This document shows, one piece after another, positions 4,280 through 55,974 of a DNA stretch of 64,000 nt. The stretch comes from a virus. The stretch is from positions 1 through 64,000 of the IMG/VR virus record IMGVR_UViG_3300017991_000010. One strand, 5' to 3'. Under the pieces are notes generated by a model. That model searched no databases. It saw nothing but the letters and a program-made list of their open reading frames with translations, and was not told the DNA's origin. Within the stretch, counting starts at the first letter, position 1. Each line of letters opens with the position of its first letter. The position numbers and the translations under genes were made by a program.

Positions 4280-4285
4280 GGTCTT

Positions 4286-4843: not shown

Positions 4844-4844
4844 G

Positions 4845-5551: not shown

Positions 5552-5674
5552 GTGTCTCTCCCGAAACTCAGCCTACGACAGCGCGATCGCCTGGGTCAAG
5601 CGAAATCGACCCCGAGCGCGAAAGCGGGATCACTCCCCTTGCGCCGCGCCCCCGCACCGTGGTATCACAGATCC

Positions 5675-6860: not shown

Positions 6861-6943
6861 TGAGGGGAAGATGAGAGGCTCGAACAACATAACCCCGCTG
6901 AAGCCGCTGTCAAGCGTTACCGTATATATAAGGAGGAAGATCA

Positions 6944-36582: not shown

Positions 36583-37497
36583 ATGCCTACGTTCGGAAAG
36601 AGTGTCACCGTACAGGCCGCCCCTGGGACGACCACGACCACCACGCAGGCGCCCACGACGGCAGCCGCGCAGTCGGCGTCACTGCCCACAACCTCGGGCA
36701 CCACGGCCCTGCTCGCAGGCGTGGTCACCGTGCCCGACAGCGAGCGCGGCGGCTACATCGCTTGGAAGGGGCGCTACAGCGGTAGGTGGCCGACCCCCGG
36801 CCCTGACGGCAAGGTCACGGCCCAGGCCATCGACCTCTCGGCCTATCGCGTGGCGCGTGATCGCGTCGCAGCCCTCCTGGCGCGCGATGGCGCCGTGGCG
36901 GGCCCTGCGGCTAGCGCCGAACGTGCTGCGCTCGAGGCCCTTTGGCGCGAGGCCGACCCGCACGGGCTGGCCGCCTTCGACCGACGCGTCGTGGCCGCTG
37001 CAACCTTCCAGGGCAACCGGGGCAAGGCGTTGACCTTCGCCCCCCGCGCCTTCAAACAGTGGTTCGACGGCGCCGTGCATCAGGAGGCCGAGCAGCTCGG
37101 GATCAACCGAGACGCCGCCCGCGCGAACATCGTCGCCAAGGGCGTGCCCAACACGGACAAGCAGCGCGTCTTCGGCTTCGACCTGACCGCGGCCCAGCGC
37201 TCCTTCGCTTCGGGCGGCGCGACCACGGGCGGCGAGCCCGAACCCCAGGTGTCGGTGGGCCGGCGCGAGATCTACTCGCCGACCGGGCGCGTGCCCTCGA
37301 CCACGCCCCCTGCCACGGACATGACGATCCCCCCTGGCGCGCCGGCGCCTGATTATGTAGGATACGGAATCTGGGGCGCCCTCGGGGGCGTTCTTGGCGG
37401 TGTGGGCGCAGCAGTGCTCAAACAAGACGCGAAGATCGGGGCGGGCCTGGGCGCGCTCCTTGGCCTCGGCGCGAAGTACGTGACCGGGAGGAGGTAG
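36583..37497 (+). CDS. Thr-rich protein with two C-terminal TM helices
   Basis: PGTTTTTTQAPTT N-terminus; glycine-zipper helices ending YVTGRR. Confidence 0.7.
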   Translation: MPTFGKSVTVQAAPGTTTTTTQAPTTAAAQSASLPTTSGTTALLAGVVTVPDSERGGYIAWKGRYSGRWPTPGPDGKVTAQAIDLSAYRVARDRVAALLARDGAVAGPAASAERAALEALWREADPHGLAAFDRRVVAAATFQGNRGKALTFAPRAFKQWFDGAVHQEAEQLGINRDAARANIVAKGVPNTDKQRVFGFDLTAAQRSFASGGATTGGEPEPQVSVGRREIYSPTGRVPSTTPPATDMTIPPGAPAPDYVGYGIWGALGGVLGGVGAAVLKQDAKIGAGLGALLGLGAKYVTGRR

Positions 37498-38221: not shown

Positions 38222-38251
38222 TTGCCAACGCCCCCGTTGGCGTGATATCCT
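38222..38251 (+). promoter_or_regulatory. Leaderless-type promoter overlapped by two CAACG...CGTTG inverted repeats
   Basis: TTGCCA-18 nt-TATCCT-6 nt-ATG(38258); inverted repeats within 38210-38240. Confidence 0.6.
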
Positions 38252-38257
38252 CCCCAC

Positions 38258-38713: not shown

Positions 38714-38714
38714 C

Positions 38715-39119: not shown

Positions 39120-39194
39120 AGGGTCGATGGGAGCCGGCGGAGGCGCGCCGGAAATACTGGTGGGGGCGCTTTGCGTTCCCGAAAGGAGAGACAC

Positions 39195-40793
39195 ATGATC
39201 TACTTCGTGGCGAGCATCCTAGGCAGGGGCGAGTGGGCGATCAGGGCGAGGGAGTGGGCGCGGGCCCTCTATCCACTCGCCGACTGCAGGCTCTACTCGA
39301 CCGATAGGCAGCCCCTCCAGTCCGCCATCCTGCCGCGCTACAACCCGACCATCACCAAGGAGCACCCCAACGGCAGCTCGCCCTACGACTTCCTGCTCGA
39401 GATGGCGACGCGCGAGCCCAAGGCGGCGCACTGCACGATCCGCTTCGGTCCCATCCAGACCCTGATGAACATCACCGATCGCGCGCCCTACGAGATCGCG
39501 ATCACGGACATCCCCGAGAACCTCACCGGGCGCCAGCGGCGCGTCCTCGAGCGCTTCGACGAGGTCTGGGTTCCCACTCTGGCGATGCAGGAGCTGTACG
39601 GGAGTGGGAACTGCGTGGCGTGGGCCGAGCCACACGCGGGCGGGGGTTTCTGGGGGGCGATCAAGCCGCTCAGCATCGACGACGAGGGGCGCGAGATCAC
39701 GGCCGCATTCGGGACGTGGGAGGAGATCGAGCCGCGTGCCGCGCGCTTCTTTGCTCAGCACCCGCCCGACGGGCCCCACCGCTTCTTGGCCGTGTGCCCC
39801 GACTGTCCGATCACGACCTCGGGGCAGCTCGTCAAGGCCTTTGGCCTGGGCGATGTGCGCCTGCCCTTCTCCCTCAGCCCAGCGCTGCCAACGGACATCG
39901 AGACCCTGATCGCGATCCGCAAGGCGTGCAACAACGTCTCTGAAGTGCCCCGCCCCATGGGCCCCTCCTACTGGGATCGCATGAGCTGCTACGCAACCCC
40001 GCCGGCCTGGAAGGTGCGCAACCGCCTCGCGGAGATCCCCAACGACACCGTCGAGCCCGAGCCTGTGCAGGCGAGCGGCCCGGCCTCGAGCGGCACCGAC
40101 ATCTGCTACGTGATCCCCTTCCGCGACCGGCCTCGGTACATGCTCGAGGACTGCCTGGCTGCGATCCGCGAGGGCGAGCTGCCCAAGGGCGATCGCATTG
40201 TGGTCTCCGACCAGTCGCCCGAATTCGACCCCGAGGTCCTCGCGCTGTGCGCCCAGTTCGATGCGACGCTCGTGCGCGACATGGCGCCTCCGCACCGCTG
40301 GAACGCAGCCAAGTGCCGCAACATTGGCGTCAGGGCGTGCCCCGAGGCGGACTACTATGCGCTCGTGGACGTGGACTGCACCGTGCCGCCCGACTATGGT
40401 GATCGCATCCGCGAAGAGCTGGCCTACGCGCCCGGCACGCCGATCACGCCCATGGTCTCCGACCTCGACGAGGAAGGTGCCCCTGCTGACTCGCGCCCGG
40501 CGCCCGGCTGCACGGTCTACCCGCACCACCTCTACTGGGCGGCGAGCGGCATGGATGAGGGCTTCGAGCGCTGGGGCTCCGAGGACATGGACTTGCTCTG
40601 GCGCCTGCGGCAGGGCGGGATCGAAGCGAGCCTGCTCGAGGACGTGATCCTGGAGCACGCCTACCACCCCCCTCAGGAGGGCAAGGCCGAGAGCGGCGAG
40701 GCGAACCTCGAGCGCATCAACAGGCGCCAGCGCGGCGAGCTAGGCGCAGCCAACCCCGACGGATGGGGCGAGGGCGGGGAGGTGGTGGCGTGA
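39195..40793 (+). CDS. Two-domain glycosyltransferase (degenerate GT-B-like N-terminus plus GT2/GT7C C-terminus)
   Basis: FDEVWVPT; YVIPFRDR, VVSDQS, RNIGV, VDVD (DxD), GMDEGFERWGSEDMD. Confidence 0.85.
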   Translation: MIYFVASILGRGEWAIRAREWARALYPLADCRLYSTDRQPLQSAILPRYNPTITKEHPNGSSPYDFLLEMATREPKAAHCTIRFGPIQTLMNITDRAPYEIAITDIPENLTGRQRRVLERFDEVWVPTLAMQELYGSGNCVAWAEPHAGGGFWGAIKPLSIDDEGREITAAFGTWEEIEPRAARFFAQHPPDGPHRFLAVCPDCPITTSGQLVKAFGLGDVRLPFSLSPALPTDIETLIAIRKACNNVSEVPRPMGPSYWDRMSCYATPPAWKVRNRLAEIPNDTVEPEPVQASGPASSGTDICYVIPFRDRPRYMLEDCLAAIREGELPKGDRIVVSDQSPEFDPEVLALCAQFDATLVRDMAPPHRWNAAKCRNIGVRACPEADYYALVDVDCTVPPDYGDRIREELAYAPGTPITPMVSDLDEEGAPADSRPAPGCTVYPHHLYWAASGMDEGFERWGSEDMDLLWRLRQGGIEASLLEDVILEHAYHPPQEGKAESGEANLERINRRQRGELGAANPDGWGEGGEVVA

Positions 40794-41848
40794 TCACCTT
40801 CTACGGCCACTTCAGCGGCTACTCGAGCTACCCGACGGTCTGCCGCGCGATCGCCAACTACTTGCACTCGATCGGCACGAAAGACTTGCAGCTGTGCGAC
40901 CTGCGGCCCCAGGGCGCGTACGACGGCGTCCCCGGCATCTCGCGCGTGCCTTCGAGCACGTGGCGTGCGGTGCAGGAGGGGCGGGCCGACCGATGGAACA
41001 AGCGCCCAGGCACTGCGCTCGTCTTCGGCTTCCCCGAGTGGGTGCGGCGCGTCGCCCAGCACGAGCGCATGGTAGGCTACCACGTGTGCGACGTGGACCG
41101 AATCCCCCGGCACTGGGCGCACATCATAAACACCGAGGACCTCGTCATCACGCCCTCGCAGTGGTGCCACGGCGTGTTCCGCAACTGCGGCGTGACGACC
41201 CCGATCGCGATTGTGCACCACGGCGTCGATGTGGCCTTCGGGGCGGTCAAGCGTCCGAAGCTCCCGCGCGAGCCCCTGACCTTCCTGCACACCTGCTCGG
41301 CGGGAGAGCCCGATCGCAAGGGCACCCTGCAGCTCGTCGAGGCGTGGGAGCGGCTGGCGTCGATGGGCGAGATCGACGCGAAGCTCACGATCCTGTCGTC
41401 CTTCCCCGAGGCGCACGCTCCCCTGGCCAAGAAGAGCTTAGGCATCAAGGTCATCAGCGGCAAGGTGGCCCGGACGCCTGCTGAGATGGCCCAGTGCGTT
41501 GCGGGCTTCCACGGCCTCGTACAGCCGTCCCGCGCCGAGGGCTTCGGCATGCTGCCCCTCGAGTGCGCCGCTGCAGGCCTCCCAACGCTCGCTACGGACT
41601 GCACGGGCCACGCAGAGCATGACAGGTACTCGACCTCCTGGAGCATTCCCACGGGCCCCTTGGCCCCCTGCGGAGGCGCCCAAGCACCTAGCCTTGACCT
41701 TGGCCACGTTGCCAACGCCCTCTTGTACATGATCGAGAACTACGATACACTCCAAGACGAGGCCAATGCCCGGCGCTCAACCATCATGGAGACGTGGGCG
41801 TGGCACAAGGTCCTCGAAAACCTGCCGGAATTGTTGACACCCTCCTGA
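40790..41848 (+). CDS. GT4-family glycosyltransferase
   Basis: ITPSQW, VHHGVD, RKG, PSRAEGFGMLPLECAAAGLP (EX7E). Confidence 0.9.
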   Translation: MITFYGHFSGYSSYPTVCRAIANYLHSIGTKDLQLCDLRPQGAYDGVPGISRVPSSTWRAVQEGRADRWNKRPGTALVFGFPEWVRRVAQHERMVGYHVCDVDRIPRHWAHIINTEDLVITPSQWCHGVFRNCGVTTPIAIVHHGVDVAFGAVKRPKLPREPLTFLHTCSAGEPDRKGTLQLVEAWERLASMGEIDAKLTILSSFPEAHAPLAKKSLGIKVISGKVARTPAEMAQCVAGFHGLVQPSRAEGFGMLPLECAAAGLPTLATDCTGHAEHDRYSTSWSIPTGPLAPCGGAQAPSLDLGHVANALLYMIENYDTLQDEANARRSTIMETWAWHKVLENLPELLTPS

Positions 41849-41898
41849 GCGTCAGCGCCGGTCTGCTCGCCCTCCTCCTCTTTCCTCAGAGGTAGTCA

Positions 41899-42453: not shown

Positions 42454-42456
42454 ATC

Positions 42457-44097
42457 ATGGGCTCAACGCTCTGGGGCACGACGCTACCGAGGGGCGGTGG
42501 TGCTGGTGGTGCGCTTTCACTGCCCGACATCCAGCAGATCCTCATCGTGGACAAGACCGCAGGCACTTACGCGCCCGACGGCACGCAGCAGCGTCCCTTC
42601 AACTCGATCGGTGCGGCCGTGACTGCCGCAGTAGCGCTTGCGCCCACGACGACCAATCGCATTCTGATCTACATCCACCCGGGCATCTACGAAGAAGCCG
42701 TAGCCATCACCAACGACTTCATCTACCTCCAGGGCGAGGATCGGGACACGACGATCATCACGAGCGACACGGTGACCCTGGGGATCACGGCCGACGAGGT
42801 CTCGGTTTCGGACCTGACGATCCACAGCGAGGATGCGTTCTACGCGATCGGCCTCAATGGCTCCTTCAACGAGTTCGTCCGGTTCTTCAACTGCCTGATC
42901 GATGTTGGTGACCCTGACGGGTACGTGTTCATCGAGGGCGGCGCCTCTGCGTGGTTCGAGCGCTGCGATTGGATCGTGGACGATGGTGCAGGAGGCGACC
43001 CTGCGCTTGCAACAGACGATGACGCGTCCAACCGCGTGGTCCTCAACGACTGCACCATCTCAGGTGGCTATATCGACTTCGACGGCGGCGCGCTCACAGT
43101 CCGGGACGGCTCGATCTCGTCCGACTCCGCCAACGGCTGTGTGCGCCTGACTGACGCCAACGTAGGCGTAGTCACGCTCGACAGCGTACACTTCATTGGC
43201 TTGGCTGCTGGGGCGCGCAAGATCTACGTGACCGCGGCGCCCACTCAGGGAATCGTGCGCAACTGCCTCTTTGACTCGGGCGCGAACAACCCCGACATCG
43301 ACTCGACCGTAGCACTCACCGGCTGGATCATTGAGGGCAACGTGATGGAGGCAGGGATCGACTCCAATGTCTCGCACGTGGCCCCGACGCGCTACGTGGG
43401 TGCGGCAGGGGACGTCGACTTTTATGCAGCCATCCAGGACGCTCTCGACGCGTGCACCTTCGACGACATCACCGTGCACCTGCTGCAGGACTTCACGATC
43501 GCCGCAGCGCTGACTCCGCCTTCAAGGCCCGTGATCATCGATGGCCATGGGTTCACGATAACGCGCGCGGCAGGCTCTCCGGCCATAACGATCGGCTCCA
43601 GTGACGACCTCGAGACACGGGACGTGAACATCGTTGGCAGCATCGACTTTGCTCCCGCGCAAGGAGGCGCTACGCTGCTCCTGGGCCCCGGCACGGTTCT
43701 TACGGGCATGCTTGACGTGCAGAGCGGTGACGCTACAGCCACAGTTGACCTGGACGGAGCTACCGTGAACGGCGACGCGAGCGACAACTACTGCATCCGT
43801 CTCGCCGACGCAGACCCGGTCGTGACGATCAAGCGCTCCTACCTGAAGGGCAATAGCGGCAACGTGGCCATCTACTGGGATACGGTCACGAACGACGACC
43901 TACAGCTCGCGTGGTCTACGGTGATCCACGGGAGCGTGGGCGCCAACAACCCTTTCGGGAGGTCGGGTGCGCAGACGCCAGACTACAAGTCGCACCACGA
44001 CGCGTACAACAGCGATCCCGAAGCAGGGGCGATCTGGACCAACCTGGTGGCTGCTGGGCAGCGGTTTGACAGCCTAGACGTGAACACGGACTACTAG
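42457..44097 (+). CDS. Pectin-lyase-like beta-helix protein, putative spike/receptor-binding protein 1
   Basis: DGTQQRPFNSIGAAV...IYIHPGIYEE...YLQGEDRDTTII; repeated F.NC.I rungs. Confidence 0.75.
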   Translation: MGSTLWGTTLPRGGGAGGALSLPDIQQILIVDKTAGTYAPDGTQQRPFNSIGAAVTAAVALAPTTTNRILIYIHPGIYEEAVAITNDFIYLQGEDRDTTIITSDTVTLGITADEVSVSDLTIHSEDAFYAIGLNGSFNEFVRFFNCLIDVGDPDGYVFIEGGASAWFERCDWIVDDGAGGDPALATDDDASNRVVLNDCTISGGYIDFDGGALTVRDGSISSDSANGCVRLTDANVGVVTLDSVHFIGLAAGARKIYVTAAPTQGIVRNCLFDSGANNPDIDSTVALTGWIIEGNVMEAGIDSNVSHVAPTRYVGAAGDVDFYAAIQDALDACTFDDITVHLLQDFTIAAALTPPSRPVIIDGHGFTITRAAGSPAITIGSSDDLETRDVNIVGSIDFAPAQGGATLLLGPGTVLTGMLDVQSGDATATVDLDGATVNGDASDNYCIRLADADPVVTIKRSYLKGNSGNVAIYWDTVTNDDLQLAWSTVIHGSVGANNPFGRSGAQTPDYKSHHDAYNSDPEAGAIWTNLVAAGQRFDSLDVNTDY

Positions 44098-44098
44098 C

Positions 44099-45700
44099 AT
44101 GCCTGGAATGCACATCTCGACACTCCCCCGCGGCGCAGTCGGCCTTGGGCGCCTCTCCCTGCCCGACATCACAAACGTTCTCTTCGTGGACAAGTCCTCC
44201 GAGGTGGGCTCGCAGGACGGCACGCAGCAGAACCCCTACCACACGATCCAGGCGGCCATCACGGCAGCCAACGCGCTCGCCGCTGTGGCTACGCCGTACC
44301 TGGTCTACGTGTATCCAGGCATCTACGACGAGGCGATCACGCTCTCGACCGACTACGTGTACCTCGCTGGCGCGAACCGGGACACGACGATCGTAGAGAA
44401 CTCGGGGGCGAACGTCGTCACGATCACCTCTGACCTGACGAGCATCAACGACCTCACGATCAGGGCAAGCAGCACGCGCCGCACGATCAGCATGGGCGTG
44501 GCTGCCAGCAACTACGTCCCGGTCTTCAACTGCATTCTGGCTGGCGCGACAGCGAACAACTACGTCGACGCTTCCCTTGGCGCGATGCTGCGGTTTGTTG
44601 ACTGCGCCTTCGTCAGTGACGTAGACGGCGTGGTCCTCCTGACTCTTACGGCTACTACTGACGTGCTGGTCGAGAACTGCGCCATCACAGGAGGTCTGCA
44701 CCACAGGCAAGGGAGCTTGCTCGTACAGGACTCCAGCATCCTTGCAGAGGCAGTCGACGGCATCCTGATGAACACTGCCGCGGCTTCTTTGTCCGTGCGA
44801 AATAGCCACATTGTGAGCACAAACAACTCGGCGATCATGGTGAACTTCGCGCCGGTGTCGATCGTGCTTCAGAACAACCTGATGTCAGCCAACGCGGCAT
44901 CCTACGCGATCGGAGCGGGGGTAGCGGTCACGGGTGCCGTAGTCGAGGACAACATCCTGACCACAGGGCTCGGCATCGACCCGGACGTCTCCCATGTGGC
45001 GCCCCACCGGAACGTAGGATCTAACGGGATGCGGGACTGGTACGCAACCACACAGAACGCGCTGGACTCCTGCACCTTCGACGGGATCACGGTGCACCTC
45101 CTAAAAGATGAGGCTACTGCTGCGCTGCTTAGGCCGCCTGACTTCTGTGTGATCGTCGACGGACACAACCACACGATCTCGCGCGCTGGGGGCGTGCTCA
45201 CCATACTGTCGGGAGAGTGCATAATAACCAAGCGTTTGGGTTTGGTCGGTAAGATCGTCGTAGCTGGCACCAACGGCCAGTTGTATCTGACAGATAGGAG
45301 TTCAGTTCTTGGTGGGATTCAGTTTGCTGTGACGTCAGCAGGCGCGATGCTAATACAAGACACCGAAATAGTGGGCTCTGCAGTGTGGAACTACCCCGTG
45401 CAGATTGACACTAACCCAGGCTTCTCCATCCTGATCAACCGCTCGAGGCTCGAAGGGGTATCTGGGTCCCCTGCAGTCTACTGGACGAGCGCGAACGACG
45501 ACCTATCGATCAAGTACAGCACACTGTGGCACGGCTCTGGCGCGGGAAACAACCCCTTTGGGCGTAGCGCTGCTCAGACGCCCGACTACAAGAGCTACCA
45601 GAGCGCCTACAACTCAGACCCCGAGGCTGGAGGCATCTGGACAAATCTGGTTGCGGCCGGGCAGCGCTGTGACTCGCTCGACGTCAACACGAACTACTGA
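44099..45700 (+). CDS. Pectin-lyase-like beta-helix protein, putative spike/receptor-binding protein 2 (paralog)
   Basis: DGTQQNPYHTIQAAI...VYPGIYDE; near-identical C-terminus to 42457-44097. Confidence 0.75.
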   Translation: MPGMHISTLPRGAVGLGRLSLPDITNVLFVDKSSEVGSQDGTQQNPYHTIQAAITAANALAAVATPYLVYVYPGIYDEAITLSTDYVYLAGANRDTTIVENSGANVVTITSDLTSINDLTIRASSTRRTISMGVAASNYVPVFNCILAGATANNYVDASLGAMLRFVDCAFVSDVDGVVLLTLTATTDVLVENCAITGGLHHRQGSLLVQDSSILAEAVDGILMNTAAASLSVRNSHIVSTNNSAIMVNFAPVSIVLQNNLMSANAASYAIGAGVAVTGAVVEDNILTTGLGIDPDVSHVAPHRNVGSNGMRDWYATTQNALDSCTFDGITVHLLKDEATAALLRPPDFCVIVDGHNHTISRAGGVLTILSGECIITKRLGLVGKIVVAGTNGQLYLTDRSSVLGGIQFAVTSAGAMLIQDTEIVGSAVWNYPVQIDTNPGFSILINRSRLEGVSGSPAVYWTSANDDLSIKYSTLWHGSGAGNNPFGRSAAQTPDYKSYQSAYNSDPEAGGIWTNLVAAGQRCDSLDVNTNY

Positions 45701-45710
45701 GAGGACTCTG

Positions 45711-46355
45711 ATGGCCAACGCTTTCTCCGATTCGTACACCGCGATGATCGATCAGCTGCGCGACATCGAGGAGGCGCTGCGCGGCGTGCAGGAGGTCTGG
45801 GACGACCTAGTAGATGAGCAGGTCCCGCACCTGGCGGCGCTGGACATGGACGGAGACCCCAGCCCCTTCGACGCCAAGCTCGCTGAGATGGGCACGTGGA
45901 CGAACGGAGTAGAGCTACGCCCTGCGGATCTTGCCGCGTCTGCGCGTTCGCGCTTTGCTTCCGAGGCGCTAGGCATTCGCGCAGCGTCGATCGAGGTGAT
46001 GCGAAAGCGCGCTCGCAGCATGGCAGAACGTCTAGCGCGGACGGCGCGGGAGCAAGCAAGAGGCGTCAGCCTTGTGACGCGCGCTCATGCGGACGCAGTA
46101 AAGGACCCGCACGATCTTGCTTGGGTGGCCAAGCTCCTGCTAGGCCTCCACGCGCTTGACCAAACGGGCGTGCCGAAGGGCGTCGAACCTACTGCGGCAG
46201 CCTTGATCGACGACGGGATGAAGCTGTGCGTGACGCGCGGGGCTACCTTGGCTCGCGTGGTCCGCACTCTGCTCCGCCAGTACCCGGATCACGTGCAGTC
46301 CCACGAGGTGCTGAAGGCCGCGCGCTACGCAGCGGGGTTGCAGGATGGTAGCTAA
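45711..46355 (+). CDS. Helical hypothetical protein
   Basis: RBS GAGGA; overlaps the next gene. Confidence 0.55.
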   Translation: MANAFSDSYTAMIDQLRDIEEALRGVQEVWDDLVDEQVPHLAALDMDGDPSPFDAKLAEMGTWTNGVELRPADLAASARSRFASEALGIRAASIEVMRKRARSMAERLARTAREQARGVSLVTRAHADAVKDPHDLAWVAKLLLGLHALDQTGVPKGVEPTAAALIDDGMKLCVTRGATLARVVRTLLRQYPDHVQSHEVLKAARYAAGLQDGS

Positions 46356-47262
46356 GCTCAACCACCACATCGGAGCGCATGCGGGAGATGCAGCAGCCAA
46401 CGCGTTCATCGCGGCAGCTGGTTGGACTGTCGAGAGCGGCTGGATGTACGACGACACGTCTTCAGGAAAGCTCAAGACCTGGGACGACCAGCAAAACGCT
46501 TGGCTCTTCTTCGGCGGCGCGTCGGGCGAGTCTGGACAAGAAACGCTTTGGGAGTGGAACGGCAACGACATCTCGCAGTTCGATAGTCCGCTGTCATACG
46601 GCGGAGGAAACGGCACACTCTCGGTGGCGACCTATCCTGCAGGTCTAGACGTGCCGCGCCGCAACCGCTTGGTGTACACCCATGACGGAAGCCCTGCAGT
46701 GCGCGCCGGCCGCCTGTACTGGATCAACGACCTCCCCACGCTGCCTGATGCCTACGTAGTGGAAGCCACGCTGGGCCCGCGCAACGAGCTAACCCTCGGC
46801 GCCAACACGGCCCCAGGTGTAGCTGTCCTGGGGCAGGATACGGCGCACTTCTTGCTGTTTGGCCGAGGGGGTGCCGGCTTCCAGGACGACCTCAACCTGG
46901 AGATCACCAACGGGGTGACATACGACGTTGGCGCACGGTGGACTACCATGCTGACCGGCGCGATGGATCGCACGGACGAAGGGTACCGAGTTCGGATGCT
47001 TGTCGATCTCCGAGACCCCACGGGCTCGACAGACCCTGGCATCAGCCTGTACCTGCTTCGCCCTGGCATGGAGGCCGTAACACGCGCCAGCTCGGTCGGC
47101 TGGACTGGATCTGGCGGTTCTCCGCCCCCAGACCCCTCGTCGTCCTGGGATGCGGGTTGGCAGTCCGGCGGCACATGCAAGAACGTAGGGCTGAACTTCC
47201 TGCATGACGCCACCGCCGCCGGCTCTGCGTACATCACAGACTTCCGTGTTCTAACCGTCTAG
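46345..47262 (+). CDS. Beta-rich (lectin-like?) putative surface protein
   Basis: W/G/T-rich beta pattern ending YITDFRV. Confidence 0.45.
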   Translation: MVAKLNHHIGAHAGDAAANAFIAAAGWTVESGWMYDDTSSGKLKTWDDQQNAWLFFGGASGESGQETLWEWNGNDISQFDSPLSYGGGNGTLSVATYPAGLDVPRRNRLVYTHDGSPAVRAGRLYWINDLPTLPDAYVVEATLGPRNELTLGANTAPGVAVLGQDTAHFLLFGRGGAGFQDDLNLEITNGVTYDVGARWTTMLTGAMDRTDEGYRVRMLVDLRDPTGSTDPGISLYLLRPGMEAVTRASSVGWTGSGGSPPPDPSSSWDAGWQSGGTCKNVGLNFLHDATAAGSAYITDFRVLTV

Positions 47263-47348
47263 GAGCAGATCATGTCAGGACTCATTCCACACTACCTCGG
47301 GCCCTTCGACCGGCACCACCTGGGTCGCGACGGGGTTCTGATGTCCCC

Positions 47349-47378
47349 TGGACAGCGCCTCGCCTAGCGTGATATCAT
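47349..47378 (+). promoter_or_regulatory. Leaderless-type promoter of the glycan-modification operon
   Basis: TGGACA-18 nt-TATCAT-6 nt-ATG(47385) with TG extension. Confidence 0.6.
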
Positions 47379-47384
47379 CCCCCC

Positions 47385-48152
47385 ATGCCTGGTTTGACTT
47401 ACGGCGTCATCATCCCTACCAGCGGCAACCGATACGTCCCCTACCTCCAGAACACCCTGGGCGCGATCCGGCGCCAGCGCTCCGAGGTCGGGATCAAGGT
47501 CGTGTGCCTCTACGACGAGCTGGAGGACTTCAAGCCGCTGGCCGACGTGTGCTGCGAGCACGACGCCGACCTGATCGTCACCGCGGGCAAGCACCCCGCC
47601 TTCTGCGCCCCCCGCGCGCGCAACATCGGAACGCGCGCGTCAGAGGCCGACGTGCTCCTCCACATCGACAGCGACATCGTGCTCCACCCGTCCACTTTCG
47701 ATGAGCTGGACGCGCTCTTCACTGCCGAGCAGGGCATCGCGGTCATCCTGTCCGTGTACCTGATGACGGGCTGCTGGCCCGCCGACCCGATCTTCCAGAT
47801 CACCGACCCCGCCGCCTTCGACTCGGTGTGCCGAGGGGGCAAGTTCACCCCTACGGGCTACGGCGCCGTGGCGGTCAAGCGTGCGGACGTTGAGCACATG
47901 CGCGGCCATGACGAGCGCTTCTACGGGCCCTGGGCCGACGACGTGGACTTCGTCCGGCGCCTCGAGCGCATGGGCCGGCGCGTCGTGCGTACGCAGGACG
48001 AGTGCAGGATGAGCATGATGCACCAGCACCACAGCTACCCCGGCGGCAAGATCCCCAACGCCTCGAACCCCTTCACGGCGCGCAACCGCAAGATCCTTGC
48101 CGAGTCGACCGACATCATCCGCAACCCGGACGGGTGGGGGGACCAGGACTGA
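47385..48152 (+). CDS. GT2/GT7C glycosyltransferase
   Basis: VIIPT, ARNIG, IDSD, GHDERFYGPWADDVDF, HQHH. Confidence 0.9.
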   Translation: MPGLTYGVIIPTSGNRYVPYLQNTLGAIRRQRSEVGIKVVCLYDELEDFKPLADVCCEHDADLIVTAGKHPAFCAPRARNIGTRASEADVLLHIDSDIVLHPSTFDELDALFTAEQGIAVILSVYLMTGCWPADPIFQITDPAAFDSVCRGGKFTPTGYGAVAVKRADVEHMRGHDERFYGPWADDVDFVRRLERMGRRVVRTQDECRMSMMHQHHSYPGGKIPNASNPFTARNRKILAESTDIIRNPDGWGDQD

Positions 48153-49012
48153 TGCATCCCACAGTGGCCCGGCGCATCCAGAGCGGCGAGATGAAGGACC
48201 CGCGCACCGGGGGCTTTTGGACCTTCGTACCCTACATGCCCAACCGGCCCGTGAGCTGCCTGACGCGCGCGCTCATCGCGCTGGACCGCGCCGTCGTGGA
48301 CGCACGCCACAGGGTCGAGGTCGTCGTCCAGGGCCCCTGCAAGCACGAGCTGCCCGACCCCGACGTGTTCGACTTCGACCTGCACTACGTCCACAACGAG
48401 CGCAACGAGGGCAACGCCAAGCCCCCCGCGGACTCCATCCGACGCTTCCTCGACAGCGACTGCGCCTGGTGGTGCCGCCTGCAAGACGACATCATCCTCG
48501 CCGATCGCGCTTGGCACCAGCTCGTGCTGATGATCCAGCAGGAGGCAGACAGAGGCGTGCGCATCGCCTGCGCGCAGGTCTCCACCGGCAACGCCAAGTG
48601 GATGAAGCCCTGGTGCTTCGAGATCAAGCCCGTGCCCGGCGGCGTCCCGCATCTAGCCCTCGTCGAGCACGCGCACGCCACCCACTCGGGCGGCTGGATG
48701 CAGTGGCACGTGGCTGAGTGCGTCGGCTTTGGTTCCACCGTGATCCGTCGCGAGCCTCTCGAGGAGGGTTGCATCCCGGACGAGCGCTATTTCGTCGGCG
48801 GCGTTGACACCGACCTCGCGCTGCAGTTCCACGCGGCGGGCTATCGGTCGATCCTGACGGTCGACCCCGTCTGCAAGCACATCCACAGCCAGTGCTCCAC
48901 CGAGGCCTACGACAACGCGCGCTACTCGAAGGAGCGGCACATGGAGGCGTGGCGCGTCTGGCGCGACAAGTGGGGCATGGACTTCGAGTTCCTCAGGACC
49001 TTCGGGAGGTAG
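48152..49012 (+). CDS. GT2-like glycosyltransferase
   Basis: RNEGNA, LQDDI, GFGSTVIRRE, DERYFVGGVDTDL. Confidence 0.75.
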   Translation: MHPTVARRIQSGEMKDPRTGGFWTFVPYMPNRPVSCLTRALIALDRAVVDARHRVEVVVQGPCKHELPDPDVFDFDLHYVHNERNEGNAKPPADSIRRFLDSDCAWWCRLQDDIILADRAWHQLVLMIQQEADRGVRIACAQVSTGNAKWMKPWCFEIKPVPGGVPHLALVEHAHATHSGGWMQWHVAECVGFGSTVIRREPLEEGCIPDERYFVGGVDTDLALQFHAAGYRSILTVDPVCKHIHSQCSTEAYDNARYSKERHMEAWRVWRDKWGMDFEFLRTFGR

Positions 49013-49014
49013 GA

Positions 49015-49683
49015 ATGAACCGCAAGACCCTCGAGTTCGATCGCAGGACGGTCGAGACCAACCAGCGCGAGTGGACCGGCGAAGGCCTCTGGGAGGCGAT
49101 CTGGAGGGACCTGCTGCCCCCCGGCGCCGACGGCCATCTCCTCGACATCGGCTGCGCCGTGCATTGCTGGTCCTGCAGCGACTACAAGGTGATCCGCTGC
49201 GACCAGTACGCCACGCGCGATCAGGGCGGCTGGACCCACTTCAAGACGGGCGACATCAACGGCCGCTGGCCCTACGGAGATCAGTCTTGCGAGGGCGTGA
49301 TCGCTGTCGAGGTGCTCGAGCACATCGAAAACGTCTGGCACTTCTACCGCGAGGCAGCTCGGGTCGCGCGCCGCTTCGTGCTGGTGACCACGCCCAACGT
49401 CGAGTGCCAGATCAGCCGCCGCCTCTTCGCCAAGACCGGACACTTGTTCAACTTCTCGCCCGAGGAGCGCGAACGCCACCGCCACATCAGCCCGATCTTC
49501 GGCTGGCAGATCGAGCACGCGGCCGAGGCTGCAGGCTGGCGGATCGAACACATCGGCTACGAGAGCCCCGACCTCGCGAAGGAGCCCCTCGTCAAGTCGA
49601 CCGTCGATGCGCACCCTGAGCTGTCGCACCTCGCGCCGGCGGGCATCAACCAGAGGACCCTCGTTGCCCTATGCGTACGCTAG
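49015..49683 (+). CDS. Class I SAM-dependent methyltransferase
   Basis: LLDIGC, EVLEHIEN, VTTPN. Confidence 0.85.
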   Translation: MNRKTLEFDRRTVETNQREWTGEGLWEAIWRDLLPPGADGHLLDIGCAVHCWSCSDYKVIRCDQYATRDQGGWTHFKTGDINGRWPYGDQSCEGVIAVEVLEHIENVWHFYREAARVARRFVLVTTPNVECQISRRLFAKTGHLFNFSPEERERHRHISPIFGWQIEHAAEAAGWRIEHIGYESPDLAKEPLVKSTVDAHPELSHLAPAGINQRTLVALCVR

Positions 49684-50513
49684 CGATCATCGGACAGGAC
49701 CGCTGCGGCAGCACGATCCTGGCGCGCATGCTCGACCGAGTCCCGGGCCTAGCGTCCGCGGGCGAAGTCCACTGGCTTGTCGACGCGCCCCCTCACCGCC
49801 CCCTAGCAACGCGCATTCGGGGCTGGCACATCTCGCGACGCTGTATGCGGCACGGCGCGTCCTGCCCCGTCTTCGATGAGCCTTTCATCACGCAGCGCTT
49901 TCCCGAGGGGGACTTGTATGCGATCGTGGCCAAACGGCTCGGGTGCGACACGCTCGTAAGCGCCGACAAGTCGCCCCAGCACTTCGAGCGCTTTACCGAG
50001 CGGGGGCAGCCCTTCGGCGTGATCTTGTACAAGCGGCCCCAGCGCGCGATCTACTCGCACATGGTCGGCGAGGCGAAGACCTTCGAGGAGGCGCTCGAGG
50101 CCTGGCACCGATTCTACGCGCTCGCGATCCGCTGGGCGCCTCAGTGGTGTAAGGAGTACGTCGCGCTCTCCTACGAGGACATCGTGCGGTCGCCGGGCTG
50201 GAGCGTCTACGCGATCACGCGCATGCTGGGCGCGCCCCGCACCGAGATCCCCCTCGCGCTCCCCGACGAGTACCACTTCATCGGCGGCAATCGCAACGCG
50301 CACCTCTGGGGGCGCATCAGCGAGGACCGCCGGTGGGAGAAGAACCTGGCCGCGCATCTGCAGGCCCAGGCAGACAAGGACCCCAGGACCAAGCGGATAC
50401 TGCGCCACCTCGAGCCCCTGCGACGAGAGAGTCTGCATGGCTGGCGACGCGCACAGGAGGAAGCTGATGCTACCGGGCGTGACGATCGTGATCCCGATCA
50501 CGCGACTGACTGA
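49671..50513 (+). CDS. PAPS-dependent sulfotransferase
   Basis: IIGQDRCGSTIL (5'-PSB loop), GEVHW, DKSP, RPQRAIYS, LSYEDIVRSP. Confidence 0.8.
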   Translation: MRTLAIIGQDRCGSTILARMLDRVPGLASAGEVHWLVDAPPHRPLATRIRGWHISRRCMRHGASCPVFDEPFITQRFPEGDLYAIVAKRLGCDTLVSADKSPQHFERFTERGQPFGVILYKRPQRAIYSHMVGEAKTFEEALEAWHRFYALAIRWAPQWCKEYVALSYEDIVRSPGWSVYAITRMLGAPRTEIPLALPDEYHFIGGNRNAHLWGRISEDRRWEKNLAAHLQAQADKDPRTKRILRHLEPLRRESLHGWRRAQEEADATGRDDRDPDHATD

Positions 50514-51330
50514 GGACTATGCGACGCGCCTGGGCTGCTGCCTGCGCTCGATCTCGCGCCAGACGCTAACCCGCGAGCGACGCGACACGATCATCTCGCT
50601 CTGCCTGCAGCCCAGGTCGATCGAGGAGAAGGCAGACGTGCTATCGGCGCTCCTAGGCGAGGCGATCATCCACCAGGCCTCGATCGTCTGCACCAAGCAC
50701 ATGCTCAACACGGACTACCCCACCGCGCTCGTGCGCAACATCGGGGGCAGGTGGGGCCGGCGCGAGTACCTGACCTTCGCCGACGTAGACGGCGTGCTCC
50801 ACCCTGAGGCACTCGAGGTTTCGCTGGAGCGCCTGGACGCAGCCCCCGAGACGTCGCCCCCCGCCGTGACGTGCATCCAGACGGCGATGACCAACTGGCC
50901 CCTGGGCTCGGCTAACTACGAGACGAGCGACCCTGAGGTCTTCGAGCACCGCTGCAACCAGTTCCCTCTAGCCATCGGCACGGGCTGCTGTACCGTGACG
51001 ACCCAGCGCGTCTTCGAGTACGTCCGCGGCTTCGACGAGCGCTACACCTGGTATGGCGCGTCCGACGTCGACTTCACCGACCGACTCGTGCGTGGGGGCT
51101 ACAGAGTCGAGAACCTGACCGAGACCTGTGGCTTGATGAACATGCACCAGCACCATGACAGAGGCGATCGCGACAAGGGCCACAGGCTCAGCGAGAAGCG
51201 CCGGGCCATGCACGACATCCTCGAGTCCTCGAAGGGCCAGCTCGTCCGCAACGAGGGCGAGCCCTGGGGCGGGATCGATTTGGCCGCGGATGCGCTTGAT
51301 GGCTGGCCAAATCCAACGGAAGGATCATGA
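50467..51330 (+). CDS. GT2/GT7C glycosyltransferase
   Basis: TIVIP, RNIGG, FADVD, RGFDERYTWYGASDVDF, HQHH. Confidence 0.85.
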   Translation: MLPGVTIVIPITRLTEDYATRLGCCLRSISRQTLTRERRDTIISLCLQPRSIEEKADVLSALLGEAIIHQASIVCTKHMLNTDYPTALVRNIGGRWGRREYLTFADVDGVLHPEALEVSLERLDAAPETSPPAVTCIQTAMTNWPLGSANYETSDPEVFEHRCNQFPLAIGTGCCTVTTQRVFEYVRGFDERYTWYGASDVDFTDRLVRGGYRVENLTETCGLMNMHQHHDRGDRDKGHRLSEKRRAMHDILESSKGQLVRNEGEPWGGIDLAADALDGWPNPTEGS

Positions 51331-52475
51331 GAGTCTACATCCTAGGCATCGACGGGTACATCGGCTGGGCGCTGGCCCAGTACCTCTCCTACCACGGGCA
51401 CGACGTCCACGGCATGGACAACGGCGCCAAGCGACGCTGGGCTGCGGGCCTAGGCGCGCGCTCAGTGCTCAAGACGCCGCTAATGTCAGAGCGATTCGCC
51501 GCTCTCGAGAGCGCCACGCAGAACCGCGGCATGCGTCCCTTCTCCGCGCTGAGCTATCACATCCTGCGCAACGAGCTGGCAGCCTTCGCCCCCGACGCGA
51601 TCGTCAACCTCGCGCAGCAGCCGAGCGCGCCCTATTCGATGAAGGGGCCCGAGGAGTGCGCCGAGACCAAGCGCAACAATGAGATCGGCATGACCAACGT
51701 GCTGTGGGCGATGCGCGAGGCCTGCCCCGACGCGCACCTGGTCGCGATCGGAAGCATGGGGGAACTCGGCACCCCTCCCTGCCCGATCCCGGAGCCCCCT
51801 TTCTCGCTCAGCGTCCACGGTGTGGACTGGGAGCCTCAGCACTTCCCGCGCTGTCCCTCGAGCCTGTACCACAGCGCAAAGGTGGCGAGCACCCACGACA
51901 TCGAGCGCGCCTGCGAGTGGTGGGGCCTGAGCGCGACGGACATCATGCAGGGCGTGGTCTACGGCGTCGATCACCCGGGCAGGTTCGGGGGGCTCTCGGG
52001 CAACCCCTCCATCTGGGCAGACGAGTGCTTCGGCACCGCGCTCAACCGCTTCTGCGCCCAGGCTGCGATCGGGATGCCGCTCACCGTCTACGGCGCCGGG
52101 ACGCAGCGGCGCGGCTTCTTGCCCCTGCGCGACAGCCTGCAGTGCCTGCGGCTCGTCCTCGAGAACCCCGCTGAGGGCTACCGCTGCATCCACCAGTTCG
52201 ATCGGGCCTACCATGTCCTCGAGCTGGCCGAGGCGGTCCAGGGCGTAGGCAGGCCGATGGGCCTCAACGTCCGCATCGAGCACCTCGACAACCCCCGCTA
52301 CGAGGCCGAGGAGCACGTCTACTCGCCCGAGGTGCGCTGGCTCCCCGAACACGGCTACGACCCCGCGGGGGACCTGCACGGCGAGATCGAAGAGATGCTG
52401 CGCGTCATGATCGCCAACCGCGAGCGTATCGAGGGGATGCGCGGCGTGCTGGCTCCGACGACGCGCTGGCGCTAG
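51327..52475 (+). CDS. sqdB: UDP-sulfoquinovose synthase (SqdB/SQD1/Agl3 family)
   Basis: LGIDGYIGW, PDAIV.LAQQPSAPYSM, HLV.IGSMGE.GTP, SLYHSAK (YxxxK), WGL..TDIMQGVVYG, FGTALNRFCAQAAIG.PLTVYG.G.Q.RGFL, NPR.EAEEH.Y. Confidence 0.92.
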   Translation: MRVYILGIDGYIGWALAQYLSYHGHDVHGMDNGAKRRWAAGLGARSVLKTPLMSERFAALESATQNRGMRPFSALSYHILRNELAAFAPDAIVNLAQQPSAPYSMKGPEECAETKRNNEIGMTNVLWAMREACPDAHLVAIGSMGELGTPPCPIPEPPFSLSVHGVDWEPQHFPRCPSSLYHSAKVASTHDIERACEWWGLSATDIMQGVVYGVDHPGRFGGLSGNPSIWADECFGTALNRFCAQAAIGMPLTVYGAGTQRRGFLPLRDSLQCLRLVLENPAEGYRCIHQFDRAYHVLELAEAVQGVGRPMGLNVRIEHLDNPRYEAEEHVYSPEVRWLPEHGYDPAGDLHGEIEEMLRVMIANRERIEGMRGVLAPTTRWR

Positions 52476-52499
52476 CCGCCTTTCACGCGCACGACACCT

Positions 52500-52528
52500 T
52501 TCGTGATCACGAACAGTCGTGGTACACT
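52500..52528 (+). promoter_or_regulatory. Leaderless-type promoter with a 14-bp palindrome
   Basis: TTCGTGATCACGAA at 52500-52513; TGG-TACACT-6 nt-ATG(52535). Confidence 0.55.
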
Positions 52529-52534
52529 CGGAGC

Positions 52535-53466
52535 ATGGGCGAGCGCCGACTAGCCGTCATCATGATCTACGCACGCAAAGGCGAAGTCCAGGAGGTGCGC
52601 GGGATCGTTGGGCGTGCGATCCGCTCGTCGCTGGGCGTGCGCCGGTGGCTCGAGGACGACCACTGGGTGGCGTACCATCGGCGCGAGGGCGATCAGTCCC
52701 CACGCTACACGCTCTACGTGACCGACGCAGAGATGGATCGACTGGTGGGCGAGATCGAGGACCTGGAGGTCGGGCTGGGCTGGCGCCTCCCCATCGAGAT
52801 CTTCCACGACTGAGGTAAGCGATGGCCAAGTACATCTTTCCGAAGGAGAAGAAGTTCCCCGTCGGGGACAAGGAGCACGAGCGGCGGGCCTACGCCTACG
52901 CGCTCGCTGGCCGCATCTCCGAGGACCAGATCATGCCCGTGTTCCGCTACCTTGCCAAGCACGCCAAGGACGAGGACACGAAGCTCCGGGCCTTGGGCGC
53001 GCTGCTCCAGTGGCGCAACTACCAGACCGGCGACGTCGCCAAGGCCTACGGGGTCGTGCGGCGGAAGGGGGCGCGGCGGAATAGCAGCAAGACCGACTAC
53101 ATGAACTACAAGGCGCGCCTGTGGGACGGCGTAAGAGCCGCGCAGGAGCTGGATCGCTTCACCTTCATCGTCCTGTTCGTCGCTCGCATGACGCGGCGCA
53201 AGGTAGATCGGGACGTGACCGAGGGCTACATGGTGCACCGGACTCGCGGCGGCTGGGTCTACGGTTGGGGCACGCGCCCCGACGATTGGCTCAACCGCCC
53301 CACCAAGGACGCCTACCGCCTGTACGATATGATCCGTAGGACCCCGCTGAACTTCTACGTGCGACAAGCCGAGGAGTTCAGGATCGATGTTCACGAGAGG
53401 CAGCCGTTTGGCACGGCTGACGCGCGGAAGCGGCGCGCGGTCGAACAGGGAACGGAGGGCTGGTGA
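52535..53466 (+). CDS. Two hypothetical proteins (52535-52813, 52822-53466)
   Basis: 52822 has an N-terminal FP.EKKFP..D..H.R.A module and an RRKGARRNS linker. Confidence 0.6.
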
Positions 53467-54623: not shown

Positions 54624-55748
54624 TCAGGCCCCGGGGTCCTCCTCGCCCTCCCCCAAGTCCCATAGATCTCCAGCACTTGTAGAGCGGTCCAGCTTGTCCC
54701 CGTGGTACAGGAGCGTCGTCTGGACGTCCCGGTGGCCGTGGTAGCGCTGGACCGAGGGCAGGGGCGCCCCGGCGTCGAGGGCCTCGGTGATGGAGGTCGC
54801 TCGGAGCGCATGGGGCCCGACAGGCCGCCCCAGGGCCGCTGAGACGCGCTTGCGGACGATCTTGGTGACCGAGGACGTCGAGAGCGGGAGCGCTCTGTGG
54901 ACCTTCCCAGCGCCACGGATGACGGGGAACAGCACGTCGTCGAGGTCGAGGGTGGCCATGTACTCCGAGAGGGCTCGCTCGAGGTCGCGGGGGACGAGCA
55001 CGATCTGGCGCTTGTCGCCCTTGCGCCTGAGCGTGACCTGGAGCCCCCCGTCTGGCGCGCGATCGAAGTCGCCCACGGTCATTTCGGCCGCCTCCTCGCG
55101 TCGCAGGCCCATGCGCACGATCGTTCGGATCAGCATCCAGTCGCGGTAGCCGATGGGTGTCGTGCGGTCGATCGCGTCCAGGACCTCGCGCACCTGCTCG
55201 AGCGGGAGCGGCGGCTGGTGGTAGGCGCGATCGGGGCGCTTGCGCGTGATCTTCTCGGTGGGCTCGTCGGTGCGCTTGCCTAGCTCGATAGCCTGGAGGA
55301 ACAGCGAGCGCAGGGCCGAGAGGCGGTTGTTGATCGTCGAGCGCTCGAAGCCAACCTTCTTGTTGCCCCGCTTGTCGACCATGGGCTTGTTCAGCAGCGC
55401 GTTCTCGTAGGCTTGGATCTCGACGGTCGTGATGTCGCCGACGTGATCGTCCAGCCACGCCAGCGCCTGCTCGGTGACCTCGATGCGGAAGGCGCGCTCG
55501 GTGTTGGCCCAGTCGGCCAGGGGGCGCTCCTCGCGGAAGGCCTGCAAGAACAGCGACGCGTCGACCCAGTTGCGCCGGTAGCGCGCCGCGGTGCCCGCGG
55601 GCGCCTGGCCCGTCATGGCCTCCCGGCGCGATCTGCGGCCCACCTGGGCGTGCTCGGCCTGCTTGGTAGCGCTCTCGCGCAGGGGCTTGCGCCGGACGAT
55701 CGCGCCCTGGGCTGGGGCAAGCTTGTCTGTCACTCGGGGAACCTGCAT
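54624..55748 (-). CDS. Tyrosine recombinase/integrase (XerC/D-like); start uncertain
   Basis: STINNRLSALRSLF (core-binding domain), GLRREE (R), RKGDK (K), HALR (HxxR), GH, TTLLY (Y). Confidence 0.93.
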   Translation of the reverse strand: MQVPRVTDKLAPAQGAIVRRKPLRESATKQAEHAQVGRRSRREAMTGQAPAGTAARYRRNWVDASLFLQAFREERPLADWANTERAFRIEVTEQALAWLDDHVGDITTVEIQAYENALLNKPMVDKRGNKKVGFERSTINNRLSALRSLFLQAIELGKRTDEPTEKITRKRPDRAYHQPPLPLEQVREVLDAIDRTTPIGYRDWMLIRTIVRMGLRREEAAEMTVGDFDRAPDGGLQVTLRRKGDKRQIVLVPRDLERALSEYMATLDLDDVLFPVIRGAGKVHRALPLSTSSVTKIVRKRVSAALGRPVGPHALRATSITEALDAGAPLPSVQRYHGHRDVQTTLLYHGDKLDRSTSAGDLWDLGEGEEDPGA

Positions 55749-55974
55749 GGGGTCTTCTTGACGACGGGGCGTCCGCTGTGGCGCGCTTGTCGGCTGTTGG
55801 TGACCAGGTTCGGCATCGCCTGAACGTGCCCGGACCAGCGCGCATTCACCCTGGGGCCATCGTTCGGTAGGCATCTACGATCGCGAAGGCCCTTGTAATT
55901 GGGCGATCGCGCAACTGTAACGGCCCGCCGCACCTCTGCTGTGTCCTCCGCCAGCTCCTCGATCTCGTCGAACA

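Follow-up and report, generated by a model that had tools for sequence, protein, structure and literature searches.

Sulfoquinovose is known from sulfolipids and from the N-glycans of Sulfolobus; what, then, does a virus build with a gene that resembles the synthase of its nucleotide-activated form? The question is raised by six genes at positions 47385 to 52475 of the stretch analyzed here (bases 1 to 64000, referred to as the window) from a 94,028-bp IMG/VR genome of an uncultured sediment virus (IMGVR_UViG_3300017991_000010, G000). The answer that we favor, and that may well prove right, is a cytoplasmic, virus-owned kit for building and tailoring a glycan, with virion surface proteins as the acceptor.

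All six genes lie on the plus strand and pack the interval with almost no intergenic space. They encode glycosyltransferases (GTs), a methyltransferase dependent on S-adenosylmethionine (SAM), a sulfotransferase of the type that uses 3'-phosphoadenosine-5'-phosphosulfate (PAPS), and an extended short-chain dehydrogenase/reductase (SDR), as follows (nt, nucleotides).

47385..48152, plus strand, GT2a, a soluble GT-A (GT2-like) enzyme with DSD and C-terminal MHQHH motifs (PF10111, 35.9 bits, cut-off 27.3; PF13641)
48152..49012, plus strand, a second, divergent GT-A fold glycosyltransferase with a QDD motif (ESM Atlas GT2 clusters)
49015..49683, plus strand, class I SAM-dependent methyltransferase (PF13489, 31.9 bits, cut-off 27; PF08241, 27.5 bits, cut-off 21.2)
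49671..50513, plus strand, PAPS-type sulfotransferase (PF13469, 34.5 bits, cut-off 27; 13-nt overlap with the methyltransferase gene)
50467..51330, plus strand, GT2b, a soluble GT-A enzyme with DVD and MHQHH motifs (PF02709, 32 bits, cut-off 23)
51327..52475, plus strand, SQD1/SqdB/Agl3-family extended SDR with N94, P99, S143, and L147 (PF01370; 4-nt ATGA overlap)

This gene list (three GTs, methyltransferase, sulfotransferase, and SqdB), first proposed in an earlier note on this DNA, is supported by Pfam, NCBIfam, the ESM Atlas, and an alignment with SQD1; Pfam gathering cut-offs are passed by five of the six genes, the exception being the second. For the latter, searches of Pfam, NCBIfam, and PDB sequences gave no match, and its assignment comes from the ESM Atlas (feature score, 0.98; predicted-structure template-modeling score, 0.73 over residues 17 to 286). 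Its start is probably the ATG at 48152, with a 1-nt overlap with the preceding TGA, and a 2-nt gap separates it from the methyltransferase gene, where a GGGAGG ribosome-binding site lies ahead of the ATG at 49015. GT2a and GT2b are paralogous (29% identity; E value, 1e-18), and the RNIG, DxD, G-DE, D-D, and H-x-x-H positions are common to both and to the C-terminal half of a protein encoded upstream (39171 to 40793, listed below). The AlphaFold model of GT2a (three paralogs) had a predicted local distance difference test score (pLDDT) of 47 and was too poor for use. The GT2b gene overlaps the sulfotransferase gene by 47 nt and has an AGGAGGA ribosome-binding site before 50467, with an alternative start at 50437.

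The sulfotransferase has DRCGST as its 5'-phosphosulfate loop and KRPQRAIYS as its 3'-phosphate motif, and the invariants of its subfamily are G8, C12-G-S-T15, K100, P123, and S129. A profile made from it and three relatives matches the CurM sulfotransferase (4gbm; E value, 9.5e-6; residues 5 to 229), followed by the OLS sulfotransferase, cytosolic sulfotransferases, and TPST. The subfamily is unnamed, with 4973 cluster representatives at an E value of ≤1e-3 and 96 at ≤1e-30. Its wider alignment contained no stretch conserved enough for a pattern search, and IMG/VR pattern scans for the sulfotransferase recovered only two records, both already known.

Active site of the SqdB-like enzyme

From its sequence, the product of the last gene is a probable synthase of uridine diphosphate (UDP)-sulfoquinovose. 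It had been described as a full-length SqdB with the YHxxK motif intact and Ser in place of the usual Thr, and this description is borne out (YHSAK and GSMG): residues 2 to 381 align end to end with Arabidopsis SQD1 (E value, 7e-73), and the NCBIfam UDP-sulfoquinovose synthase model NF041015 matches over its full length (E value, 8e-108; 360.8 bits), the next family having an E value of 7.5e-5. In common with SQD1 (PDB 1qrr and 1i24), SqdB, and Agl3, the enzyme keeps the GxxGxxG motif for nicotinamide adenine dinucleotide (G7-x-x-G10-x-x-G13), the Ser/Thr-Tyr-Lys triad (S143-Y181-K185), the His beside the catalytic Tyr (H182), and the equivalents of Agl3 Met145 and Glu147 (M144 and E146); that of Agl3 Ser180 (S179) is also kept. 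Ser in the place of Thr, seen in 18 of 279 homologs, is taken to be harmless because the Agl3 T144A variant is fully active (PMC4388408).

Three features count against this assignment. The score of 360.8 bits is below the NCBIfam equivalog cut-off of 575 bits and is the lowest of the viral copies tested, five others scoring about 450 to 557 bits. The Tyr of GEYG (Agl3 Y148) is Leu, a state unique among the 279 homologs, two others having Phe. The His of VHxAE (Agl3 H95) is Asn; every protein of the eight-member clade to which the enzyme belongs has Asn, Cys, or Met here, and Asn occurs at this position in other natural homologs as well. The residues needed for Agl3 activity are His95, Arg101, Met145, Glu147, Tyr148, Ser180, and Thr185; H95A and R101A are inactive and Y148A retains 15% activity (PMC4388408). 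At the two remaining positions, the Arg of EQRSAP (Agl3 R101) is Pro in the viral enzyme, as in 189 of the 279 homologs (Arg in 16), and the Thr185 equivalent is Ala.

In a FastTree phylogeny of the 279 sequences, the enzyme sits on a long branch in a clade (starred in the tree) of eight unannotated metagenomic proteins at 50 to 58% identity. Sister to this clade are two IMG/VR loci of low guanine-plus-cytosine (GC) content that have nothing else in common with this virus. The nearest named cellular homologs (45 to 48% identity) are spread over Chloroflexota, Desulfobacterota, Spirochaetota, Acidobacteriota, Actinomycetota, and archaea, and no host or donor can be inferred from the SqdB homologs. 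A single metagenome scan with the enzyme gave homologs of 38 to 47% identity among the matches listed.

Whatever the acceptor, it is rather unlikely that this small, divergent clade has drifted from sulfoquinovose synthesis to another reaction, for example one that ends at UDP-glucose-5,6-ene or 4-keto-6-deoxyglucose or that adds a different nucleophile, in which case the glycan would be sulfated through the sulfotransferase only. The unique Leu, the clade-wide replacement of His95, the effects of H95A and Y148A in Agl3, the long branch, and the lowest NCBIfam score all point that way, but the end-to-end alignment with SQD1, the distance to the next best family, the retained residues listed above, the majority state of Pro at the Arg101 position, and the natural occurrence of Phe and Asn at the Tyr148 and His95 positions point back to the synthase. 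The low score is not decisive and is in itself no argument against a sulfoquinovose function, because the 575-bit cut-off is strict: only one of 12 control genomes with a match passes it, and the 12 include Sulfolobus acidocaldarius, which has the proven Agl3. Synthesis of sulfoquinovose is thus probable and not certain, since Leu and Asn occupy two positions that are important in Agl3. As a natural SqdB variant without two residues thought important in that enzyme, the protein is a concrete enzymological test case.

Viral ownership and recurrence in other viruses

The earlier note had also allowed for host DNA misassembled into the contig. This is now very unlikely and essentially excluded, because the codon usage is native and zero-difference contigs bridge both junctions. 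The codon usage of the operon correlates with that of the remaining genome at r = 0.946 (single operon genes, 0.85 to 0.92; median for other genes, 0.83), and zero-difference contigs of another sample span the left junction (46184 to 47464) and the right junction (50330 to 52872) at even depth. The record has a direct terminal repeat of 123 bp (own check) and a CheckV completeness of 100%, and the virus stretch was found in sediment metagenomes from several studies and in one seawater study. For a nonviral element speaks that most genes are without recognized relatives (ORFans) and that no terminase, portal, or HK97 capsid protein was recognized; against it stand, besides the assembly data, the following genes.

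31993-32604, capsid candidate of 203 amino acids (43 homolog clusters, mostly 51 to 82% identity)
54624..55874, minus strand, tyrosine recombinase or integrase (PDB XerA/XerD/XerH matches at an E value of 3e-10; one Phage_integrase match)
G000 79130-81697, minus strand, family A DNA polymerase with an N-terminal uracil-DNA-glycosylase-like domain and a 3'-5' exonuclease (closest GenBank phage matches, 22 to 26% identity)

This polymerase fusion (UDG-PolA) belongs to a phage-type replication module with an SbcCD-like pair, an AAA_24 ATPase, a PD-(D/E)XK nuclease, and a primase-helicase. A scan of 72 open reading frames of the genome added a Tad3-family anti-Thoeris protein (E value, 2e-38; position not localized), an M23 peptidase, and DnaJ, SNF2 helicase, and transglutaminase-like proteins; Tad3 and the accompanying genes point to a bacterial host with Thoeris defense. 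Terminal repeats, a capsid-like family present in other viral records, and phage-type replication and antidefense genes together mark the genome as that of a bacterial virus. The window contains no tRNA genes.

The capsid-candidate family occurs on large viral contigs (78 to 182 kb; up to 179 kb for those of the 43 clusters) and on ten other IMG/VR records with syntenic modules, and a diverged second copy lies at G000 69977-70585 behind its own leaderless extended -10. The top VIA-align match of the AlphaFold model (pLDDT, 67) is the SPV1 capsid at a Z score of 7.1, which is within the common-fold range; further matches are HCIV-1, HHIV-2, the STIV turret, and, by Foldseek, SH1, with no Foldseek match at an E value of ≤0.001. 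The modeled jelly-roll capsid fold is therefore suggestive only.

The closest complete relative among the ten (G006; 104 kb, terminal repeats, 62.8% GC) has a syntenic structural module and replication genes in common with this virus. An SqdB homolog is absent from all ten, four of which are complete genomes; SqdB is, on the gene content of these relatives, dispensable for the lineage. Only G006 has a homolog of the sulfotransferase (30% identity), and GTs are present in two further relatives.

Related cassettes were found in G006, at another genome position than the operon, and in an unrelated virus. The G006 cassette (G006:C1:5970-10219, L262) encodes a radical-SAM enzyme, a GT4-like enzyme, a Methyltransf_23 protein, and the sulfotransferase. 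The second (L004; positions 3988 to 11197) is in a complete 54-kb tailed phage of 50% GC (IMG/VR record G001) and encodes a GT9-like enzyme, a GT2-GT4 fusion, a radical-SAM enzyme, a Methyltransf_23 protein, a sulfotransferase of the same subfamily as that of the operon (25% identity), an SqdB (48% identity), and an SDR epimerase; the gene of the tail tube is found about 1.5 kb farther downstream. The two cassettes are homologous to each other in the radical-SAM enzyme (about 580 amino acids; 34% identity), the methyltransferase (29%), and the sulfotransferase (24%). With the operon they have in common the sulfotransferase subfamily (24 to 30% identity), the methyltransferase-sulfotransferase(-SqdB) order, and the GTs alongside; they differ from it in the large radical-SAM enzyme and their mutually homologous methyltransferase, both absent from this virus, which has three paralogous GT-A enzymes instead, and G006 is without SqdB. 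Recurrence of the same order in this virus, G006, and the unrelated L004 makes it, as far as gene order tells, an apparently mobile viral module and suggests that it deserves a family definition.

A survey of viral contigs for sqdB, which the earlier note had proposed as a check, gave no match when IMG/VR was scanned with the single protein, and a profile scan found at least 137 contigs with an SqdB relative. Four of five viral sqdB records tested are complete genomes of 46 to 54 kb with terminal repeats, and the fifth is a linear fragment. Among 57 dereplicated loci, sqdB stands beside PolA in 22; the most frequent immediate neighbors in the other 35 are dCMP (deoxycytidine monophosphate) deaminase (8), GT2 (7), SDR epimerases (6), Methyltransf_23 (5), GT9 (4), and NeuB (2). 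Across 240 viral, genomic, and metagenomic sqdB loci, BLAST detected no relatives of the operon genes except SqdB and the sulfotransferase.

The order of the replication-module loci is AAA_24, sqdB, a ParB-DNA methylase fusion, and PolA (L056, L075, L061, L065, L011, and others), which suggests that these phages use a sulfo-sugar differently, maybe on DNA. For the virus studied here, a role in DNA modification was rejected: the replication module lies elsewhere in the genome, and neither dCMP deaminase nor any other family of nucleotide-modifying enzymes came up in the proteome scans.

Promoters, neighboring genes, and the acceptor

The operon had been said to consist of six overlapping genes behind their own promoter, and the gene layout and a sigma-70-like site agree with this. 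The promoter has a twin farther upstream.

47349..47378, plus strand, promoter-like TGGACA-18-(TG)ATATCAT (TG extension; 10 of 12 positions match; the first ATG follows after 6 nt)
38222..38255, plus strand, twin promoter TTGCCA-18-(TG)ATATCCT, then a leaderless ATGCCT (heads the block 38258-47262)

The promoter search that gave the operon site found two sites, against 0.6 expected in shuffles. Since the promoter ends 6 nt before the first ATG, the transcript is, judged from these positions, probably leaderless; the next gene after the operon (52535) carries its own extended -10, which places the end of the operon at 52475. The 16-mer GCGTGATATCMTCCCC occurs in the window at 38240 and 47367 only (0.11 expected by chance), and its form common to both promoters is written GCGTGATATC(A/C)TCCCC. 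The pair (38222-38255 and 47349-47382) is near-identical in the -35, the 18-nt spacer, GTGATATC(A/C)T, and the ensuing ATGCCT, so that the likeness reaches across the -35 region into the first codons. The upstream block and the six-gene operon are thus probably co-regulated, because their promoters are twinned.

The block comprises two small genes, a GT2-like protein of 540 amino acids, a GT4, a 184-amino-acid protein, ORFans, and two proteins of about 540 amino acids; the main features of the block, and one gene ahead of it, are as follows.

39171..40793, plus strand, 540-amino-acid protein, in its C-terminal half a GT-A paralog of GT2a/GT2b (25% identity; E value, 6e-10; G006, 32%)
40763..41848, plus strand, GT4 (GT-B) glycosyltransferase (PF13692, 47 bits; phrog_2170, E value 9e-24; conserved in the relatives G006 and G015)
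42457..45700, plus strand, two adjacent beta-helix-like proteins of about 540 amino acids, weak candidates for spikes or depolymerases (sub-cut-off pectinesterase-like N-terminal match)
45558-46355 and 46345-47262, ORFans in the upstream block
36583..37497, plus strand, 304-amino-acid protein with the only Ser/Thr run of the proteome, a speculative candidate O-glycan acceptor

The GT2-like and GT4 genes are conserved inside the syntenic structural module of G006. The product of 36583-37497 has an N-terminal Thr/Ala/Ser-rich tract (six Thr, then QAPTT), a Pro/Thr linker, and a Gly-rich hydrophobic C terminus, which make up a mucin-like, membrane-anchored layout. The three genes that precede the operon (44099 to 47262) have a GC content of 0.61, against 0.66, and a codon-usage r of 0.79 with the genome, consistent with recently exchanged host-recognition genes.

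Transmembrane helices are predicted for none of the eight enzymes (the operon's six plus the GT2-like and GT4 enzymes encoded upstream), and no protein of the genome has more than two transmembrane or hydrophobic segments. Proteome scans found no flippase, oligosaccharyltransferase, initiating phosphoglycosyl transferase, PAPS-reductase, or sulfate-activation families. Because these export and sulfate-activation families are missing, the enzymes should depend on UDP-glucose, sulfite, PAPS, and SAM of the host and act in the cytoplasm. There, the SqdB-like enzyme would use UDP-glucose and sulfite drawn from the host to make UDP-sulfoquinovose or a near analogue modified at position 6, the three soluble GT-A enzymes would assemble a short oligosaccharide with the upstream GT2-like and GT4 enzymes, the sulfotransferase would add an O-sulfate from host PAPS, and the methyltransferase would cap a hydroxyl with SAM. 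The glycan would be placed on virion surface proteins during assembly, much as chloroviruses and mycobacteriophages glycosylate their particles; candidate acceptors are the spikes of beta-helix type or the Thr-rich protein with its membrane anchor. The C-sulfonated, O-sulfated, methylated glycan put forward in the earlier note is still the most economical reading of the gene set, and the part that is weakened is C-sulfonation, given the substitutions at two Agl3-critical positions; we infer the sugar made, the order of the steps, and the acceptor.

Among the acceptors named in that note (virion proteins, membrane lipid, or the lysogen surface), we favor virion proteins, because the operon shares its twin promoter with the block of spike-like genes and stands at the end of the structural module, because export and lipid-carrier machinery were not found, and because the L004 cassette is near a tail tube gene. 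Several observations pull in the other direction: a search for tagged virion proteins found a Ser/Thr tract in one protein only; the spike assignment of the pair of about 540 amino acids is weak (phrog_4577 "tail protein" at E values of 4e-4 and 3e-3, about 1e-3); SqdB is dispensable for the lineage, as described above; and the integrase, about 2 kb off, together with the operon's own promoter, gives the locus a moron-like look.

These last features keep the lysogen surface alive as an acceptor. The operon would then be a moron that lysogens express from the promoter next to it and that modifies an envelope glycan or glycolipid of the host, so that sulfoquinovose, sulfate, and methyl groups alter the cell surface and block superinfection or allow escape from other phages; we consider this plausible, though on balance unlikely. 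Temperate phages often bear O-antigen-modifying genes near the integrase, and here the opposite strand carries the tyrosine integrase gene 2.1 kb past the end of the operon, the promoter is sigma-70-like, and the cassette is accessory (SqdB absent from the ten relatives; another genomic position in G006). However, all the enzymes are soluble, no membrane-embedded transferase, flippase, or GtrA/GtrB-like protein was found in the genome, and both the promoter twinned with the spike-like-gene block next to the structural module and the position of the L004 cassette agree better with decoration of the virion.

The classical role of SqdB is the synthesis of sulfoquinovosyldiacylglycerol (SQDG), and UDP-sulfoquinovose combined with diacylglycerol could yield an SQDG-like lipid in an internal membrane of the virus or in the host membrane. 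Such a lipid would suit the many membrane-anchored proteins of the virus and its capsid candidates, which are of the single jelly-roll-like kind found in internal-membrane viruses; also in its favor are a sub-threshold Glyco_transf_21 match of GT2a and the GT21/GT2 genes beside cellular sqdB in two loci. It is nonetheless improbable: the viral GTs are unlike any GT next to sqdB in the 240 loci (E value, 1e-4), no transmembrane or amphipathic anchor is predicted, and three GTs, a sulfotransferase, and a methyltransferase far exceed the needs of SQDG synthesis. The sulfolipid route is thus the part of the earlier proposal left unsupported.

Returning to virion proteins as the acceptor, a broader proposition can be made only tentatively and is the more doubtful of the two: that this is a lineage of bacterial viruses, tailless, probably containing a membrane, and with single jelly-roll-like capsid proteins, whose spikes or membrane proteins carry a C-sulfonated, O-sulfated, O-methylated glycan made wholly by soluble viral enzymes, the cassette being mobile across unrelated lineages. 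The C-sulfonated sugar, either sulfoquinovose or a new analogue, would come from an SqdB clade that is specific to viruses and has a changed active site.

Comparison with known systems

Virus-encoded glycosylation has been proven experimentally in chloroviruses, mimiviruses, and a few mycobacteriophages, and to our knowledge none of these systems uses a sulfonated sugar. If the broader proposition is true, this would be the first viral sulfoquinovose glycoconjugate and also the first in a bacterial glycoprotein context. With an SqdB-like enzyme, a sulfotransferase, a methyltransferase, and five GTs, the surface of particles or lysogens would become unusual and strongly anionic, with possible consequences for recognition of the host, stability of the particles in sediment, evasion of glycan-binding defenses, and the organosulfur cycle.

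The literature search found no paper on a viral operon joining SqdB, a sulfotransferase, a methyltransferase, and GTs. The claim of the earlier note that such a viral system was undescribed went too far, given the SqdB relatives on IMG/VR contigs counted above and two published accounts (PMC7785012, PMC9614988). In the first, a lone putative UDP-sulfoquinovose synthase gene was reported from a Mu-like virus of the Cariaco Basin (PMC7785012). That case, too, is a viral contig with an SqdB-family gene read as glycosylation related; it differs in being a lone auxiliary gene of a tailed phage, with no sulfotransferase, methyltransferase, or GT operon described. Compared with SQD1, SqdB, and Agl3 themselves, the enzyme studied here is virus encoded, is 45 to 58% identical at most to anything known, and belongs to a small unannotated clade, and no SqdX/SQD2, SqdD, or AglB-type partner was found for it.

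In the Megavirinae, glycan clusters of Moumouvirus australiensis, Cotonvirus, and Tupanvirus include sulfate-metabolism enzymes, and sulfated fibril glycans have been suggested, not shown (PMC9614988). Those clusters resemble the present operon in being clade specific and in combining nucleotide-sugar enzymes, GTs, methyltransferases, and sulfate-related enzymes; theirs serve sulfate activation (sulfate adenylyltransferase/adenosine 5'-phosphosulfate kinase), whereas here a sulfotransferase and a C-sulfonating SqdB-like enzyme would draw on host PAPS and sulfite.

Virion glycosylation is established for mycobacteriophages of the Che8, Corndog, and Myrna type, as cited in PMC11256854 and PMC12363180. 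The likeness lies in phage GTs beside structural genes, which in those phages decorate capsid and tail proteins. The mycobacteriophages are tailed, in contrast to the lineage proposed here, and a comparison with GenBank phages at the DNA and protein levels turned up nothing that matches the operon or, within it, SqdB, GT2a, and the second GT-A; we know of no sulfo-sugar, sulfotransferase, or methyltransferase reported for the mycobacteriophage systems.

Chlorovirus PBCV-1, for which glycosylation and methylation by A064R (two GT domains and a methyltransferase) and the A061L methyltransferase have been demonstrated (PMC9614988), is a eukaryotic giant virus that uses neutral sugars and neither a sulfonated donor nor a sulfotransferase, and its acceptor is established, whereas those named here are candidates. 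It has in common with the virus studied here soluble, virus-encoded GTs and O-methyltransferases, and its enzymes act in the cytoplasm on its own structural protein without host export machinery (PMC9614988).

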